Below, in pieces: positions 4,435 to 18,730 of a DNA stretch of 64,000 nt. Source of the DNA: Candidatus Woesearchaeota archaeon (GTDB lineage: Archaea; Nanobdellota; Nanobdellia; Woesearchaeales; JAGVZT01); the NCBI GenBank assembly GCA_018263355.1, contig JAANXH010000054.1, positions 2,779-66,778 of the forward strand, read 5' to 3'. Within the stretch, counting starts at the first letter, position 1. The number at the start of each line of letters is the position of its first letter. Below the pieces are notes generated by a model. That model had not been told where the DNA came from. It ran no database searches and saw nothing but the letters and a program-made list of their open reading frames with translations. A program made the translations under genes and the position numbers.

Positions 4435-4493
4435 CTAAAGTAAGAAAAGTAAGAATGTTTATATAATTTGTGTTTTTATAGTAAAAAATAACG

Positions 4494-4612
4494 AAAAAGT
4501 GGCACAGAGGCGTTAATACCCTACATCATGTCACTAACGTTCCTGACCTTAAGCATAGCTTAAGGCTTTGGTGTAGGGATTAGCCTCTGTTTTTGACCGC
4601 CACTTTTTCGGA
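4494..4612. repeat. structured repeat family B, copy 1 (nested inverted repeats AAAAAGTGG..CAGAGGC..core..GCCTCTG..CCACTTTTT)
   Basis: near-identical core catcatgtcactaacgttcctgacNttaagcatagcttaaggcttt shared with 33850-34007; compensatory pair ccctaca/tgtaggg vs ccccaca/tgtgggg. Confidence 0.6.
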
Positions 4613-4639
4613 ACAACAAAATCTCTGATTTTGTGTCCA

Positions 4640-4690
4640 GGAAATCAAAGATTTCCTTGAATTGAAAATCCCGCAAAGCGTGATTTTCAA
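4640..4690. repeat. hairpin module X (ggaaatcaaagatttcc + gaaaatc..gattttc) adjacent to family B
   Basis: reverse complement of 33783-33839; same ggaaatc-N-gatttcc hairpin recurs at 6150, 12470, 12592, 12850. Confidence 0.4.
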
Positions 4691-4786
4691 TAACAAAGTA
4701 CAGGAAGTATTAAACAGCCCATCGCATCCATCTTTTTAAAGAAAAGCTGGACCAAAAACAGGAAGGTTTTCTCACTTAGTAGCCAA

Positions 4787-5986
4787 CTACATCAAAAAAT
4801 AAGATAATACAGGAAGTATTAAGCACCCCATGGCGTGATTTCTTCCAATATCTTTTAATGGAGCAATCAACCCGATAGCAGCACCAGTAATTAAGACTAT
4901 TATTCCTATTGGTCCATTTAACACTAAGCTCATAATAAATATCAAACTAATAACTGAGATAACTAATCTTTTGTAATTAACTTTTACAATCAAGTTGGAA
5001 AATATTTTGGAAAACCATAAAGTGAGTAAAACTGATACTGAGCCTGCAATTAAAAAAACAAAAATCAAGATTAAAAAAGAATTCAAGTCAATTTCCATTA
5101 ATTTTGAAATAACAACTATAGTGCCGTCTTTTGCTTTATCCAAAGTATAAAATGTAACTAAAGAAAACACAACACTCATTGTTCCCATAGCACCAACTAA
5201 AGCTAAATACCCTTTATCTTTAACATCTCTTACAATCTGGTTGCTTATCACTGCTCCCTGAGCTGGCCCTAATCCTGGAAAAAATTGAATAAAAAAAACT
5301 GCTATACTGCTTCCTAAAATAGCCTTAACCAAATCTTTAATCTTGAGATCAATTCTTGATTCAATCTTCTGCTTTGGAATTTTTGTATTTTCATAATAAC
5401 TTAAGATTAAACCAGAAACACCAAATAAACCAGATAACATTGGAAACAAAGGCTCTTTGAAATTTGGAATAGAGAACACAACCAATCCCAAAGTGCCAGA
5501 AAGCATAAATAAAATAAAACTCCATAGTTTCTTTTGTTCTTTTAAAATCATATAAATCATTAAAACCAACAGTAAGTATCCAACATAAGGTTTTAGAAAA
5601 TTATAGACTTTTGTAGCAATTAGCATAAAAACAGGAATTAGCACAATCGCAACCAATAAACCAATATATGTTCCTAGAATTGTAATTTTAACAGCCTGAT
5701 AACCTTCACCTTTTAAAAGCATTTTCTGACCTGGCAGCACAGATAAAGCATTCTCATTTTCCGGAGCACCCAAATAAATTGAAGGAATAGTGTCAAGAAA
5801 AGAATGCACCACGCTAAGTGAAATGATAAATGCAGCAAGTGATAGAGGAGACATAAACCCTAGCAACCAAGGGGACAGAGCAAACATAGCAGTTGCAACT
5901 AAGTTAACATGAATTCCAGGTATTATGCCTGTGATGATACCGCAGGACACGCCAACTAATAATGCTATAAGTATCTCAATAAACAT
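4787..5986 (-). CDS. polytopic membrane protein, TctA/DUF112-like transporter (tentative)
   Basis: 399 aa, about 10 TM segments, Gly/Pro-rich N-terminal helices IITGIIPGIHVNLVATAM. Confidence 0.45.
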   Translation of the reverse strand: MFIEILIALLVGVSCGIITGIIPGIHVNLVATAMFALSPWLLGFMSPLSLAAFIISLSVVHSFLDTIPSIYLGAPENENALSVLPGQKMLLKGEGYQAVKITILGTYIGLLVAIVLIPVFMLIATKVYNFLKPYVGYLLLVLMIYMILKEQKKLWSFILFMLSGTLGLVVFSIPNFKEPLFPMLSGLFGVSGLILSYYENTKIPKQKIESRIDLKIKDLVKAILGSSIAVFFIQFFPGLGPAQGAVISNQIVRDVKDKGYLALVGAMGTMSVVFSLVTFYTLDKAKDGTIVVISKLMEIDLNSFLILIFVFLIAGSVSVLLTLWFSKIFSNLIVKVNYKRLVISVISLIFIMSLVLNGPIGIIVLITGAAIGLIAPLKDIGRNHAMGCLILPVLSYFLM

Positions 5987-6002
5987 ATTGTGCGGTGCGG
6001 GC

Positions 6003-6202
6003 GGGACTCTCCAAGCCAGGGGCCAAACTTATTTGAACCAGCATGGAACTGAGAGTTCCACCTGAGTGTGCAAAAATCACTGATTTTTGAACACTTGAAA
6101 ACCTATGGTTTTCACGTGCATCAATCAGGCGCAATACCTGATTACACAGAAATCAAAGATTTATGTGTTAGGAAATCTCGGATTTCCTTTATGCGACCGC
6201 AC
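6003..6202 (-). ncRNA. candidate structured RNA or heavily interrupted tRNA-like gene
   Basis: GC-rich island in 500-nt intergenic gap; terminal 11-bp pairing GTGCagtGGTGCGG / CCGCACCGCAC; ends ..gagagtCCCGCCCGCACCG like the tRNA 3' exons found elsewhere; no clean cloverleaf found by eye. Confidence 0.2.
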
Positions 6203-6489
6203 CACTGCACAACGAAACACTCAAAAACTCCAATCTCTTCCTATAAACTTAACTGGGAGTTTCACTTGGGTTTATGTGACTCTTTGTTTCTTTTTTCCTA
6301 ATATCTATAAGAAATCCAGAGATGTAGATTTATATGCTTTGACTACAAAAAAGCAAAATACTTGCGAGAATTTGGAAATAAATCTTGATTTTTCATATTA
6401 ATAAGATTAATCTAAGTTTTCTTGGAGATCTTACGAATAATAAAAAAGAATTAATGTTTACCTGTTGATTTTTCCTTGATCTAATAATT

Positions 6490-12407: not shown

Positions 12408-12688
12408 TTACTCAGAATGCGTTGGGTCTAAATCCCCTGGCTGTCGGGAAGCATAGCTTCCTGAGCATGATCAGAAATCATAGATTTCTGACATTTAGCC
12501 CGTAGCATTATGAGTCTGAAAATCTGCTTATCAAAGTGAAGAGCGTAAAAGCTCCCACCTCTCAGAAATTTTAAATTTCTGATGATGGTTGCCAGAGCAA
12601 CCTATGAATGTTAATGAATATGATCAGAAAACTTTGTTTTCCGACATTTAGGTGGGAGATAAGATCTGAACAGCAGATTTTCTTTATA
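12408..12688. repeat. structured repeat family A, copy 1 (expanded by internal insertions)
   Basis: shares ttactcagaatgcgttgggtctaaa..gagtctgaaaatctgcttatcaaagtgaagagcgtaaaagc..ctgaacagcagattttcttta with 23741-23927 and 28964-29104; stem ctcccacct/aggtgggag covaries with cccccacct/aggtggggg. Confidence 0.7.
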
Positions 12689-12696
12689 AAATAAAA

Positions 12697-12982
12697 TGGG
12701 CTCAGAGGGACTTTCATAAACATTTAATTAAGCTAACCAAAGTTTTAACAATGCATTTGATTGTGTCGTGGTAATTTTGTGTTGATTATTCACCACGTAA
12801 AGGGACTTCAAGTCCCTTATGTTTTGGTCAAACCCAAGGAAAACATAGTTTTCCTGGCACAGGAAATTTTTGATTTCCCGGTGTTTTCTTAAAAGTTTGA
12901 TTTGAACCCTCGACCTATTAACCCAGTTTTAATAACTGTCTGGTTAAGAGCCAGTTGCTCTACCTAGCTAAGCTATGAGCCC
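12697..12982 (-). tRNA. intron-containing tRNA, anticodon CTT (Lys) inferred; about 190-nt intron after the T-loop plus extra insert 3' of anticodon arm
   Basis: 5' exon GGGCTCA ta GCTT AGCTAGGTA GAGC..CTGG CTCTTAA CCAG..GAGGG TTCAAAT; 3' exon CCCTC TGAGCCC A at 12697-12709 exactly complements T-stem and acceptor (12-nt match). Confidence 0.4.
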
Positions 12983-13034: not shown

Positions 13035-15770
13035 CTACCTTGCATAGCTTTCTAATTCTGCACTGTTTCCATTAAACACATTCGCATCAACCCTTCCACC
13101 AATACCACTGACAGAACTATGAGAATTAATTTGCCAAAAATCCCATTTGCTCCAAGTATTTGGAACCATTGGACAATCAGTCTCCCAATGAGCTACCCAT
13201 AAAGGATATTCTGAAAATTCATCAGAACCAATACTTCCCCACATTCCAGGGCTTGTATAAATCATTGGTTTTATTCCAGTTCTATCCTCTACAGTTTCCA
13301 AGAATAATGCCAGATTTTCCTGCCATTGTGATGCAGGAGCATCTCTTGAAGCTTGACTGTAAAACTCTACATCAGCAACAGGAGGCAGTTCCCCATAGTC
13401 AGAACCCATAACATTAACAAAATGTTCAGCTTGTGCTCTACCATTAACATGAGGTAAGAAAAAGTGATAAGCTCCTCTTAGAATTCCATTAGATTCAGCT
13501 TCTTGCCAATTTGTTGCAAACGTATTATCAGTAAAATCATTTCCTTCTGTAGCTTTCATAAATGCAAACTCTATTCTATCTGCAGCAACAGCACTCCAAT
13601 CAATAGCATCATTATGATGAGATATATCAATACCCTTTGCTCTGTCTGTTTCAGCACAAAGTTCTGTGTTTCCAATTCCTGAAAAACTACTTGAAGCACT
13701 GCCAGAACTTCCAGAAGTGCCTTGTCCAAAACTTTGTGCAGGTGTTCCATCAGGATTACAACCAGCACCATCAATTCCACCTTCTTTAAACTGCCAGAAT
13801 CTCATATAAAATCCATCTGGGTATTCATCTGTTGTAACCAAAATCCAACAATCTCCATTATTTAACGCTGAGCCAATGACCAATAATTCGGTGTCTGAAG
13901 AGAATTGCATACCATTTTTGTATTGCATACATGGATAATCTCCATAATAATCACACCATTCCAATGTTCTGGTATCTGTTTGTTTTTCAATGGTAAAACT
14001 TTTTCCCATAAAATCTTCTTCAAAGTTTTCTGGGCAGGTAGGATATTCTGTAGGTATACTATCTCCACAATCAACATTAGTTCCTCTAACTGGGCCTAGT
14101 GGATTAGGTCCTGGTGGAACATCTTCTACTGGAACCCAGATATAGTATGTTATTGTTTCAGTTTCATATTCAACAGTGTGCTCTATACATTCTGCCATTT
14201 CTGTTTCCCAAGGATCACAATCAGGACAAAGCTTAGGTACTTCACGTGCGGGCTCTCCAACATCTTCAGATTCACAAAGTAGATAAGATTCCTCAAGATT
14301 TACTCCAAATCCACTGAAAGTAAACTCTATTCCAAACTTTAGGCAAGCATCTTTAGGTTCATCTAGGTTTCCTGCACTTGAATCATAGGGTTGTGTTGCA
14401 TCTTGAAAATCACTTAGATCAATTAAACACCAATCATCACTATCTGGAGTACAAACAGCATTTAGAACCATATCTTCATCACCAGATATATCGTTATCTG
14501 TATCTGTCCATCCAATTACAGGATCTCTATCTTCTCTAGTCCATATACAAGAGTCTCCTTTATCCGCAAATATTACCTGATTGTCATTTCTGTATCGTTC
14601 AAACTCATATCTGTCATAATAAAAATAATCCTCTGTACAATCACAATCACTTGTTGATCCTACATCATCGCAAGTCCCAGTGCAATCTCCATTACAGCTA
14701 CTGCAACTACTGACTGGTCTGGTTCCTTTTGTAGGTCCTTCACAAGTATCTCCTTCTCCTTCACCAACATCCTGATCAATATCTGATGACTGAATATATA
14801 ATTCTCCAGGAATCTCTGAAGGAGGATCGGGAGGACGTTCTGTCCAACCACCACACACTTGACAATCTTCAGTAATTATATTATCAATCTGTAAAACACT
14901 TGCATCATCTTCTTCTGTACATCTTAGCATTACTCCAAAAGGTGTAAAGTGTGTAGTTCTAGCTCTTATCACATTATTTTCCTCATCTACTTCTGAGGAT
15001 TCTAATGATACCCAAATATCTAAATCTTTATTATAATATCCTAATGTTAAATTCCCTTCACCAATAGTTGAAGGCACATCTTTTTGATGATAATTAATAA
15101 CTAATTCTACTGGATTTGAAAACTCTGCACCATCTGGCAATCCTCTGTATGCTAGCTTGCTCTTCCGATCTAAATTAGATAAATCATCAAACTCTCTGTC
15201 AAGTACTTCTATTCCTACTTCATCTGATCCACTTAGAGTTGTGCCAGGAGGTACAATAATCTGAAAATTACTATCTGAGGAAGTAATTAGTGTTTCTTGT
15301 GAAGTTTTAATTTTTTCAAATGTTTTTCTAGGTAGCACATAGTTTTGCTCCTTAAATTTTATAGTTGCATCTTGTTTTGTAAGTTCAATTGGAAATTGTA
15401 AATTTACATCAACTGTTTCCTCATTAATATTGGCCTGAACAGTAACTTCTCCTTCTTTGACTTCATATCCCTGTTCTATATATGAGGGAAGACCTTTTGT
15501 GCATCCAAGTATATTGCGAGACACATAATGTTCTATCCAGTCTTCTGAAACATCTTCATCAATACCATATGAAACCATTGCATCATTTGAGACTAATTCA
15601 AGACAAGATCCCATAAAATAATTCAATGATTCCTGTGTTTTTTTTGTATCGCTGATTTTTGGAAAATTCGGCTCTCCTTGACTTTTAGAAATTAAAAAAA
15701 AAGTACTAACTCCAACAATTAAAACAATACCTACAATAAGAAAAATACTAATTTGTGATTTTGAACCCAT
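13035..15770 (-). CDS. giant membrane-anchored cysteine-rich surface protein with C-terminal GH25 muramidase domain
   Basis: N-terminal TM SIFLIVGIVLIVGVSTFF; paralog of 15839-18217 over about 650 aa; C-terminal GIDISHHNDAIDWSAVAADRIEFAFMKATEGNDFTDNTFATNWQEAESNGILRGAYHFF (GH25). Confidence 0.8.
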   Translation of the reverse strand: MGSKSQISIFLIVGIVLIVGVSTFFLISKSQGEPNFPKISDTKKTQESLNYFMGSCLELVSNDAMVSYGIDEDVSEDWIEHYVSRNILGCTKGLPSYIEQGYEVKEGEVTVQANINEETVDVNLQFPIELTKQDATIKFKEQNYVLPRKTFEKIKTSQETLITSSDSNFQIIVPPGTTLSGSDEVGIEVLDREFDDLSNLDRKSKLAYRGLPDGAEFSNPVELVINYHQKDVPSTIGEGNLTLGYYNKDLDIWVSLESSEVDEENNVIRARTTHFTPFGVMLRCTEEDDASVLQIDNIITEDCQVCGGWTERPPDPPSEIPGELYIQSSDIDQDVGEGEGDTCEGPTKGTRPVSSCSSCNGDCTGTCDDVGSTSDCDCTEDYFYYDRYEFERYRNDNQVIFADKGDSCIWTREDRDPVIGWTDTDNDISGDEDMVLNAVCTPDSDDWCLIDLSDFQDATQPYDSSAGNLDEPKDACLKFGIEFTFSGFGVNLEESYLLCESEDVGEPAREVPKLCPDCDPWETEMAECIEHTVEYETETITYYIWVPVEDVPPGPNPLGPVRGTNVDCGDSIPTEYPTCPENFEEDFMGKSFTIEKQTDTRTLEWCDYYGDYPCMQYKNGMQFSSDTELLVIGSALNNGDCWILVTTDEYPDGFYMRFWQFKEGGIDGAGCNPDGTPAQSFGQGTSGSSGSASSSFSGIGNTELCAETDRAKGIDISHHNDAIDWSAVAADRIEFAFMKATEGNDFTDNTFATNWQEAESNGILRGAYHFFLPHVNGRAQAEHFVNVMGSDYGELPPVADVEFYSQASRDAPASQWQENLALFLETVEDRTGIKPMIYTSPGMWGSIGSDEFSEYPLWVAHWETDCPMVPNTWSKWDFWQINSHSSVSGIGGRVDANVFNGNSAELESYAR

Positions 15771-18269: not shown

Positions 18270-18468
18270 AGCGGGAGGAGGGACTTTCAATACCTTTTTC
18301 CAAAGTGGATTCGACGTAGTCGAAGACACCTGCTTTTGGTGCAACTTTTAAGCGAAGCGGTAAAAGGTGCATTTGAACCCTCGGATCGTCGGGATCTATC
18401 AGTCATAGCAAAAATGCTCTTCATCCCGTTGCAGCCGACTGCCTTAAACCGGACTTGGCCACTCCCGC
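18270..18468 (-). tRNA. tRNA-Cys (anticodon GCA) with canonical 37/38 intron (about 35 nt) and a second about 88-nt intron after the T-loop
   Basis: GCGGGAG tg GCC AAGTCCGGTTTAA GGC a GTCGG CTGCAA [intron] c CCGAC GATCC GAGGG TTCAAAT [intron] CCCTC CTCCCGC T; all four stems pair. Confidence 0.55.
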
Positions 18469-18472
18469 AATA

Positions 18473-18730
18473 TGGACCCGAAGGGACTTTCGACAATCCT
18501 AAAACCAACTCGTACCGTGGTTATTTAGTTTTCATATCTTCCACGTCAAGGGGCTTAGGCCCCTTATGTTTTGGTCGAGCTTTTTTTAAAAGATCGATTC
18601 GAACCCTTGATCTACAGCTGTCTGTAATCGCGGATTTCCGAGCAAATCTCGGTTCCCTCAATCTTAGAAGGCTGTCGCCTTATTTGCCCAAACCTTTATT
18701 CAAAGTTCACCAGGCTAGGCTACGGGTCCA
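18473..18730 (-). tRNA. tRNA with anticodon TCT (Arg) inferred; D-loop, 37/38 and T-loop introns
   Basis: GGACCCG ta GCCT AGCCTGGT[insert]AGGC g ACAGC CTTCTA[intron]a GCTGT AGATC AAGGG TTCGAAT [intron 18486-18596] CCCTT CGGGTCC A. Confidence 0.4.

Follow-up and report, generated by a model that had tools for sequence, protein, structure and literature searches.

The structured module shared by two tRNA introns in the DNA analysed here is probably the conserved folded core, or apical domain, of a family of bulge-helix-bulge (BHB) introns. These introns are long (105-190 nt), and the family is probably specific to this lineage and has probably multiplied from tRNA gene to tRNA gene. Copies were found in D-, anticodon- and T-loop introns of six different tRNAs, in this archaeon and in a sister genome. 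Because of this distribution, a multiplying intron family fits better than the intron-borne functional small RNA that the original prediction had put forward.

Disrupted tRNA Genes in the Window

The window is the whole stretch of 64,000 nt from Candidatus Woesearchaeota archaeon that was analysed, and its G+C content is 33%. The TrmI and DRG proteins encoded in it match those of a Candidatus Woesearchaeota metagenome-assembled genome without any difference. The tRNA-Arg(TCT) gene (18473-18729, minus strand) contains three introns: a D-loop intron of 27 nt without the P2 and P3 hairpins of the module (18682-18708), a 37/38 intron (18620-18664) and a T-loop (59/60) intron of 111 nt (18486-18596). 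When the minus strand was read and spliced in silico, ARAGORN called a 74-nt Arg(tct) cloverleaf. The tRNA-Lys(CTT) gene (12697-12982, minus strand) has two introns, one near 42/43 (12918-12939) and one of 190 nt in the T loop at 59/60 (12710-12899). Its spliced form was called Lys(ctt), and the Rfam tRNA model gave a partial match on the unspliced gene (12918-12982). Both long T-loop introns carry the module, with covariance model (CM) scores of 95 bits in Arg and 90.5 bits in Lys.

The tRNA-Cys(GCA) gene (18270-18468, minus strand) has introns at 37/38 and in the T loop, and its spliced form was also called by ARAGORN. The T-loop intron of this gene (18283-18370, minus strand) is a relative of the module introns that is without P2 and P3. 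A probable tRNA-Ser(TGA) gene, at about 5989-6207 on the minus strand, has a layout like that of the Arg, Cys and Lys genes.

After in-silico intron removal, ARAGORN found that Arg(tct), Lys(ctt), Cys(gca), Glu(ctc), Leu(caa) and Ser(cga) were all canonical. Since the cloverleafs are perfect once the Arg and Lys inserts are removed, these inserts are genuine T-loop introns, located where the original prediction had placed them.

A 59/60 T-loop intron of 25-190 nt was present in every tRNA gene seen in the window and the sister genome, namely the four window genes (all minus strand) and the genes at the sister loci L003, L004, L005 and L044; each gene has one or two further introns. Neither ARAGORN nor Rfam at the gathering score found an unspliced tRNA gene in the window, and the sister genes likewise escaped standard tRNA finders. 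The introns explain why such finders report zero tRNAs, and apparent tRNA gaps in such genomes would be artefacts. This is relevant to the tRNAs reported missing from DPANN genomes. Disrupted tRNA genes have been found hidden in DPANN genomes (PMC5829648), and the present genes fit this description.

Sequence and Fold of the Module

The window contains exactly two copies of the 16-mer GACCAAAACATAAGGG (12814-12829 and 18561-18576, both minus strand), and about 0.8 matches were obtained in shuffled sequences even when three mismatches were tolerated. The 16-mer is followed by AAGGGACUUGAAGUCCCUU in Lys and AAGGGGCCUAAGCCCCUU in Arg, and the differences between them are compensatory: the two versions of the G+C-rich hairpin are GGGAC.../...GUCCC and GGGGC.../...GCCCC. 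On the 3' side of this hairpin, both introns continue in the same order with UA or GA, CGUGG, an A/U-rich loop of 20-21 nt and CCACG. The 16-mer, the compensatory hairpin and the CGUGG...CCACG hairpin were thus all confirmed as first described.

The Arg module core (18509-18580, minus strand; fold z −4.5) consists of a closing stem CUCGACC/GGU-A-CGAG, the unpaired AAAACAU, P2 (18548-18565), GA and P3, in which CGUGG (18541-18545) pairs with CCACG (18516-18520). The Lys module (12734-12832, minus strand) is formed in sequence by P1, AACAU, P2, UA, P3, ACA and a P4 hairpin. In P1, UUGACCAAA pairs with UUUGGUUAG; P2 lies at 12800-12818; and P3 is formed by CGUGG (12793-12797) and CCACG (12767-12771), after which ACA and the P4 hairpin follow. 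An insertion of about 50 nt with two extra hairpins within the 5' arm (12836-12885, minus strand) is specific to Lys and is missing in all seven other copies. The introns and the isolated cores fold far better than shuffled sequences, with z-scores from −3.7 to −5.5 overall and from −3.7 to −5.2 for the 111-nt Arg intron and the cores.

We then assessed covariation over the eight copies. In the alignment, 94% of the cells were paired and both-sided changes were found in 9 of 22 pairs; none of 500 column shuffles matched the observed covariation, and sliding the partners by 1-3 columns reduced pairing to 28-45%. The shuffle statistics are inflated, since the model was used to fit the alignment and the copies share a common ancestry. 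The orthologous Arg T-loop intron of the sister genome illustrates this covariation with the window copy. Its closing stem is CUUGACC/GGUACAAG, CGUGG/CCACG is changed to CAUGG/CCAUG in P3, and AAGGGG/CCCCUU is changed to AUGGGA/UCCCAU.

The GACC segment is partnered in every copy. In the Arg T-loop introns its partner is GGU right after P3, and the ortholog has CUUG/CAAG in place of the adjoining CUCG/CGAG. For Lys and Leu the partner is UUUGGUU, which lies further downstream, and the corresponding pair in the Arg D-loop copy is AUUAA/UUAAU. That G-U pairs are conserved argues that selection acts at the level of RNA, not DNA.

Some conserved bases are unpaired. AAAACAUA, and ACAC after P3, are near-fixed in six of the eight copies though they are unneeded for pairing. 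Such near-invariant junction bases are not obviously required by a pure folding scaffold, and they would be compatible with protein binding, mobility or action in trans.

The first nine intron bases follow C-R-A-N-C-UUUU and have two near-equal partners, an internal segment (forming the hairpin P0) and the 3' tail, both of which track the changes of the 9-mer. Because the 9-mer pairs about equally well with either, the splicing-competent fold is not the sole plausible fold.

Copies in Other Genomes

We scanned 185,579 species-representative genomes with exact patterns, to which diverged copies are invisible. The module was found three times, in each case in the assembly CAYQPU01. This is a syntenic sister genome, with protein identities to the window of 80% for TrmI and 79% for DRG, and it holds orthologs of the window Arg, Cys and Lys genes. 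The sister loci were found via homologs of the window TrmI and DRG. The record CAYQPU010000021.1 (GCA_964419615.1; L044) bears the name of an uncultured Methanosarcinales archaeon. This label looks wrong, as the record is syntenic with the Candidatus Woesearchaeota genome and shares about 80% protein identity with it.

A CM trained on five copies brought the total to eight: the Arg and Lys T-loop copies of the window, plus six copies from the sister genome. The latter lie in the Arg D-loop, Arg T-loop, Lys T-loop, Glu(CTC) D-loop, Leu(CAA) T-loop and Ser(CGA) 37/38 introns, and these hosts were confirmed by in-silico splicing. Together, the eight copies occupy the D-loop, 37/38 and 59/60 sites of six tRNA species, with cores that are 62-93% identical. 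All of them are sense-oriented and several are present per genome; in about 200 kb covering the window, the sister loci and more distant loci, the CM found no copy outside tRNA introns and none in antisense. The known hosts are two species, by which the breadth and direction of spread are thinly sampled.

These copies bear on the earlier view that conservation in two independent introns indicates function. The conservation of structure and sequence holds, and extends by covariation to eight copies in two species. The introns are homologous members of one family, and in that sense the two are not independent. The module does recur at other tRNA loci of the kind that had been suggested for a search, the six sister copies being the result.

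Several other matches were rejected. Two bacterial matches from the genome scan (L001 and L002) have no tRNA context and lack the remaining module, and were considered as chance, as were all exact-pattern matches in metagenome contigs and viral contigs. Among these were giant-virus tRNA-Gly genes, where the pattern is matched by coincidence across the anticodon arm, variable loop and T stem. A weak CM match in the window (4728-4810) proved to be a second, degenerate copy of the 3' end of the ORF at 4787-5986. A tRNA-derived origin of the module was also dropped: the Rfam tRNA model has no match on the module, and the match count equals the chance expectation.

Assemblies from several samples, seven for the window organism and three for its sister species, contained no allele without the intron. 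The searchable literature yielded no earlier description of the module, nor of any family of structured introns in Woesearchaeota.

Splice Junctions

The T-loop introns here start directly after UUCRAAU and finish with YGAAAGU ahead of the CCC of the T stem. In the MFE structures of the T-loop copies, the T stem is followed by a 3-nt AGU bulge, a helix of 4-5 bp formed by UUCR(A) and (U)YGAA, an A(A)U bulge of 2-3 nt on the opposite side and a long inner stem. In the Arg T-loop intron, the AGU bulge is followed by a UUCGA:UCGAA helix, an AU bulge and then a long stem, and this junction is BHB-like. The junction of the D-loop and 37/38 copies looks relaxed. Based on these predicted structures, the T-loop copies match the BHB form recognised by the archaeal splicing endonuclease, and we infer that they are cut at 59/60.

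A 59/60 intron has been cleaved in vitro in another DPANN archaeon, ARMAN-2 (Candidatus Micrarchaeum), by the host endonuclease (PMC3239211). The insertion site is identical and the lineage is likewise DPANN. However, the ARMAN-2 intron has 13 nt and a relaxed junction, whereas the present introns reach 190 nt and have an extended stem and a conserved core. The two genomes studied here also differ from ARMAN-2 (PMC3239211) in that a 59/60 intron interrupts every tRNA seen.

History of the Copies

We compared the tRNA genes of the window with those of the sister genome. Identity was 97-99% in the tRNA exons and 70-91% in the other introns. The positional orthologs of the module-bearing T-loop introns were 68-71% identical, which places them among the least conserved intron pairs compared. 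The window Lys T-loop intron is 86% identical to the sister Leu T-loop intron over 140 nt, a match that covers the variable P3 loop, the P4 hairpin and the 3' tail, versus 68% to its positional ortholog. Similarly, the window Arg T-loop core is 75-80% identical to the sister Glu, Leu and Ser copies versus 67% to its own ortholog. Such discordance between orthologs and paralogs is not predicted by simple vertical descent, and it points to copying or conversion between tRNA genes after the species split.

The core can also be lost or altered. The sister Arg D-loop intron has 119 nt and the full module, and its window ortholog has 27 nt. The window intron aligns with both ends of the sister intron, which indicates that P2/P3 were lost and the intron was kept; it retains the 5' hairpin arm and the 3' tail and is a deletion derivative. 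The Cys T-loop intron has the common 5' arm GCACCUUUU...AAAAGUUGC-ACCAAAAG and the CUUUGG 3' partner, with one different inner hairpin. In the sister genome, the Arg and Lys T-loop cores are strongly diverged.

In more distant Woesearchaeota, the T loop of the DRG-syntenic tRNA-Lys gene is intact in two loci, L048 (66% DRG identity) and L049 (63%), and in L049 the adjoining tRNA-Cys gene also has an intact T loop. At a further locus, L050 (60% DRG identity), the tRNA-Lys gene has a T-loop intron of only 31 nt that is built on a CUUUU/AAAAG hairpin.

A Possible Role for the Core

The role of the core may be explained as follows. [quoted passage not shown] Their 5' 9-mer, C-R-A-N-C-UUUU, would pair with the 3' tail to form a long stem, and this stem would set both splice sites in the bulge, 4-5 bp helix and bulge beside the tRNA's own stem. 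The compact domain that caps the stem would consist of P2 and P3, joined by the fixed junction nucleotides and closed by the GACC(AA) pairing. The main role of the core would then be in cis: a long insert could reach its fold unaided, which would allow the junction to form and the tRNA to mature. The core would travel along when the intron is copied. The family has probably spread to at least six tRNA genes, at sites in the D, anticodon and T loops, and its copies have probably been exchanged between genes since the divergence of the two known hosts, with later decay or core loss.

As far as PMC4090602 and PMC4033280 present it, the occurrence of similar introns in different tRNAs and positions is a published sign of intron transposition in Thermoproteales. 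The transposed introns of Fujishima et al. (2010), as cited in these two papers, appear to be a like phenomenon, with multiple introns in many tRNAs. The host here is a DPANN archaeon (Woesearchaeota), whereas the Thermoproteales hosts are crenarchaeal. To our knowledge, Thermoproteales introns are mostly short and have not been described as having a common covarying multi-hairpin core. In contrast, the present introns have 105-190 nt and a conserved two-hairpin domain, and the discordance between orthologs and paralogs is seen directly across species.

The family would thus give a handle on how archaeal tRNA introns multiply and reach new positions. The Thermoproteales case rests on short, similar sequences. 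Here the marker is long, recognisable and under structural constraint, and it occupies three tRNA positions in two species, so that the copies can be traced through their history. Exchange after speciation and later decay seem evident in the family, and it offers concrete RNAs for work on splicing, circularisation and mobility.

Alternative Explanations

Among the alternatives to a multiplying intron family, the one that survives best is a trans-acting small RNA hosted in the intron, and we consider it unlikely. The RNA would be excised and probably circularised, P2/P3 and the invariant single-stranded ACCAAAACAUA would bind a protein or base-pair with a target, and the tRNA genes would be expression hosts. 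The covarying stems with fixed unpaired junction nucleotides, and the several copies per genome, all sense, are what such an RNA might show. The core is also near-identical across two species with only about 80% identity in conserved proteins. A precedent exists in the guide RNA of the tRNA-Trp intron (PMC4090602). The box C/D RNA in question (Haloferax) is likewise a structured conserved element inside a BHB intron, freed by splicing, but it lies in one tRNA at 37/38 (PMC4090602), whereas the module occurs in many tRNAs at three positions, with no box D and essentially no box C.

The original prediction had raised box C/D or other guide features as a possible mark of function. Box D (CUGA) was found in none of the eight introns. 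Box C (RUGAUGA) was exact in only one of them and lay outside the conserved core, so that no credible box C exists. We also found no k-turn signature, no guide complementarity and no C/D family match on the module. ACA follows P3 in five of the eight copies; nonetheless, none has an H/ACA pocket, P3 being a stem of 5-8 bp with a simple AU-rich loop. Rfam gave nothing on the module even at E < 10 (the inputs were short). When the window was searched for the reverse complement of the conserved single strand, the only exact matches were the antisense of the two introns themselves, and the near-matches are 1-2 bases off.

The behaviour of the copies also argues against a trans-acting RNA. The core was deleted from one intron that persists (Arg D-loop) and is strongly diverged in two sister copies, and the orthologs of module introns are poorly conserved. 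There is no free-standing copy in the scanned loci, and the module is missing in sampled relatives at 60-70% protein identity. The proposal of a functional small RNA in the intron is therefore unsupported by any tested feature.

In eukaryotes, the host introns of snoRNAs and the introns that give rise to tRNA-intron circular RNAs are expression vehicles for stable RNA. By comparison, a stable excised intron that acts in trans is hypothetical here. It is unlikely, in the same measure, that P2/P3 and the invariant ACCAAAACAUA form a new RNA class that promotes its own spread, as a recognition element for reverse splicing or BHB copying, or else a trans-acting, probably circular, small RNA of Woesearchaeota.

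We regard as highly improbable a MITE-like DNA transposon with terminal inverted repeats CGATCTTTT...AAAAGATCG, which would insert in tRNA genes and survive only where the RNA is spliceable. Mobile elements have been proposed in tRNA intron gain in Caldiarchaeum (PMC3293823), and perfect 9-bp inverted termini do occur in some copies (Glu D-loop, L003; Lys T-loop, L044). However, the inverted termini coincide exactly with the helix required by the BHB junction, and some of their pairs are G-U, which are relevant only in RNA. The internal segment repeats the 3' end like a duplicated target, but no target-site duplications flank the introns, and the 3' end of the Lys intron complements the T loop and is not a repeat of it. 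A DNA element would also have to be squared with the confinement of all copies, over the roughly 200 kb scanned, to the sense strand of tRNA introns; the sole apparent match elsewhere (4728-4810) is the degenerate duplicate of a gene 3' end.

That the similarity reflects only shared T-loop splice-junction needs plus chance can be set aside: the ends UUCRAAU/C...YGAAAGU/CCC (slashes, splice sites) are indeed common to every T-loop intron here, with the module or not, but the Cys T-loop intron makes the same junction without P2/P3, and the shared block is intron-internal, spans about 70 nt and includes an exact 16-mer, which together with the D- and anticodon-loop copies already refutes this view.

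Four narrower candidates were examined. A group I or group II intron or a small ribozyme was rejected, with no Rfam match at the gathering score or at E < 10 and with lengths of 105-190 nt that are too small. An intron-internal promoter, with CTTTTAAAAAAAG as an archaeal TATA box, was considered since the A/T-rich CUUUUAAAAAAAG resembles such a box; it was rejected because a GC-rich mini-hairpin replaces the A/T loop in four family members while the CUUUU/AAAAG pairing is kept. An antisense terminator, formed on the plus strand by P2 and then TATGTTTTGG, was rejected as there is no plus-strand gene of at least 80 codons directly upstream. Mini-ORFs common to the copies were not found.

Other Observations

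Another repeated hairpin, AAATC-N3-5-GATTT, occurs at ten sites in the window (4140, 4619, 4642, 6074, 6150, 6173, 12475, 33802, 43868 and 45683) against about one expected from base composition, and also at 59-94 of the sister locus L005. Several of these hairpins lie inside other tRNA introns. In addition, a 71-nt stretch of the D-loop intron is 88.7% identical between the probable tRNA-Ser of the window (6129-6198) and the sister tRNA-Ser(CGA), and by this similarity it looks like a second shared intron unit.

Two 37/38 introns show motifs worth recording. That of tRNA-Cys (18386-18427) contains GGGAUGAAGAGC...GACUGAUAG, which is loosely C/D-like, and its ortholog has GGGAUAUUGAGC. That of the sister tRNA-Leu(CAA) (L004, about 1700-1745) contains GUGAUGAGG and CCGAUGAUUG, which resemble C/C' boxes.

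The non-coding region 4490-4790, for which Rfam gave no match, shows strong folding on either strand (z −7.0 and −6.3) and has a hairpin of about 120 nt at 4492-4610; its segment 4699-4790 repeats, in degenerate form, the 3' end of the ORF next to it (4787-5986). In the interval that separates tRNA-Lys from the DRG GTPase gene, about 125 nt (within 12530-12680) are closed by a 9-bp terminal pairing CTCCCACCT/AGGTGGGAG and give weak, sub-threshold Rfam matches to a C/D snoRNA model (28 bits) and a histone stem-loop model (27.8 bits). This segment may be an unannotated small RNA.

Finally, a 911-aa protein is encoded at 13035-15770 on the minus strand. The remainder of this protein has no Pfam match, and its C-terminus is a GH25 muramidase (lysozyme) domain (Pfam E = 6e-44), here in a DPANN archaeon.
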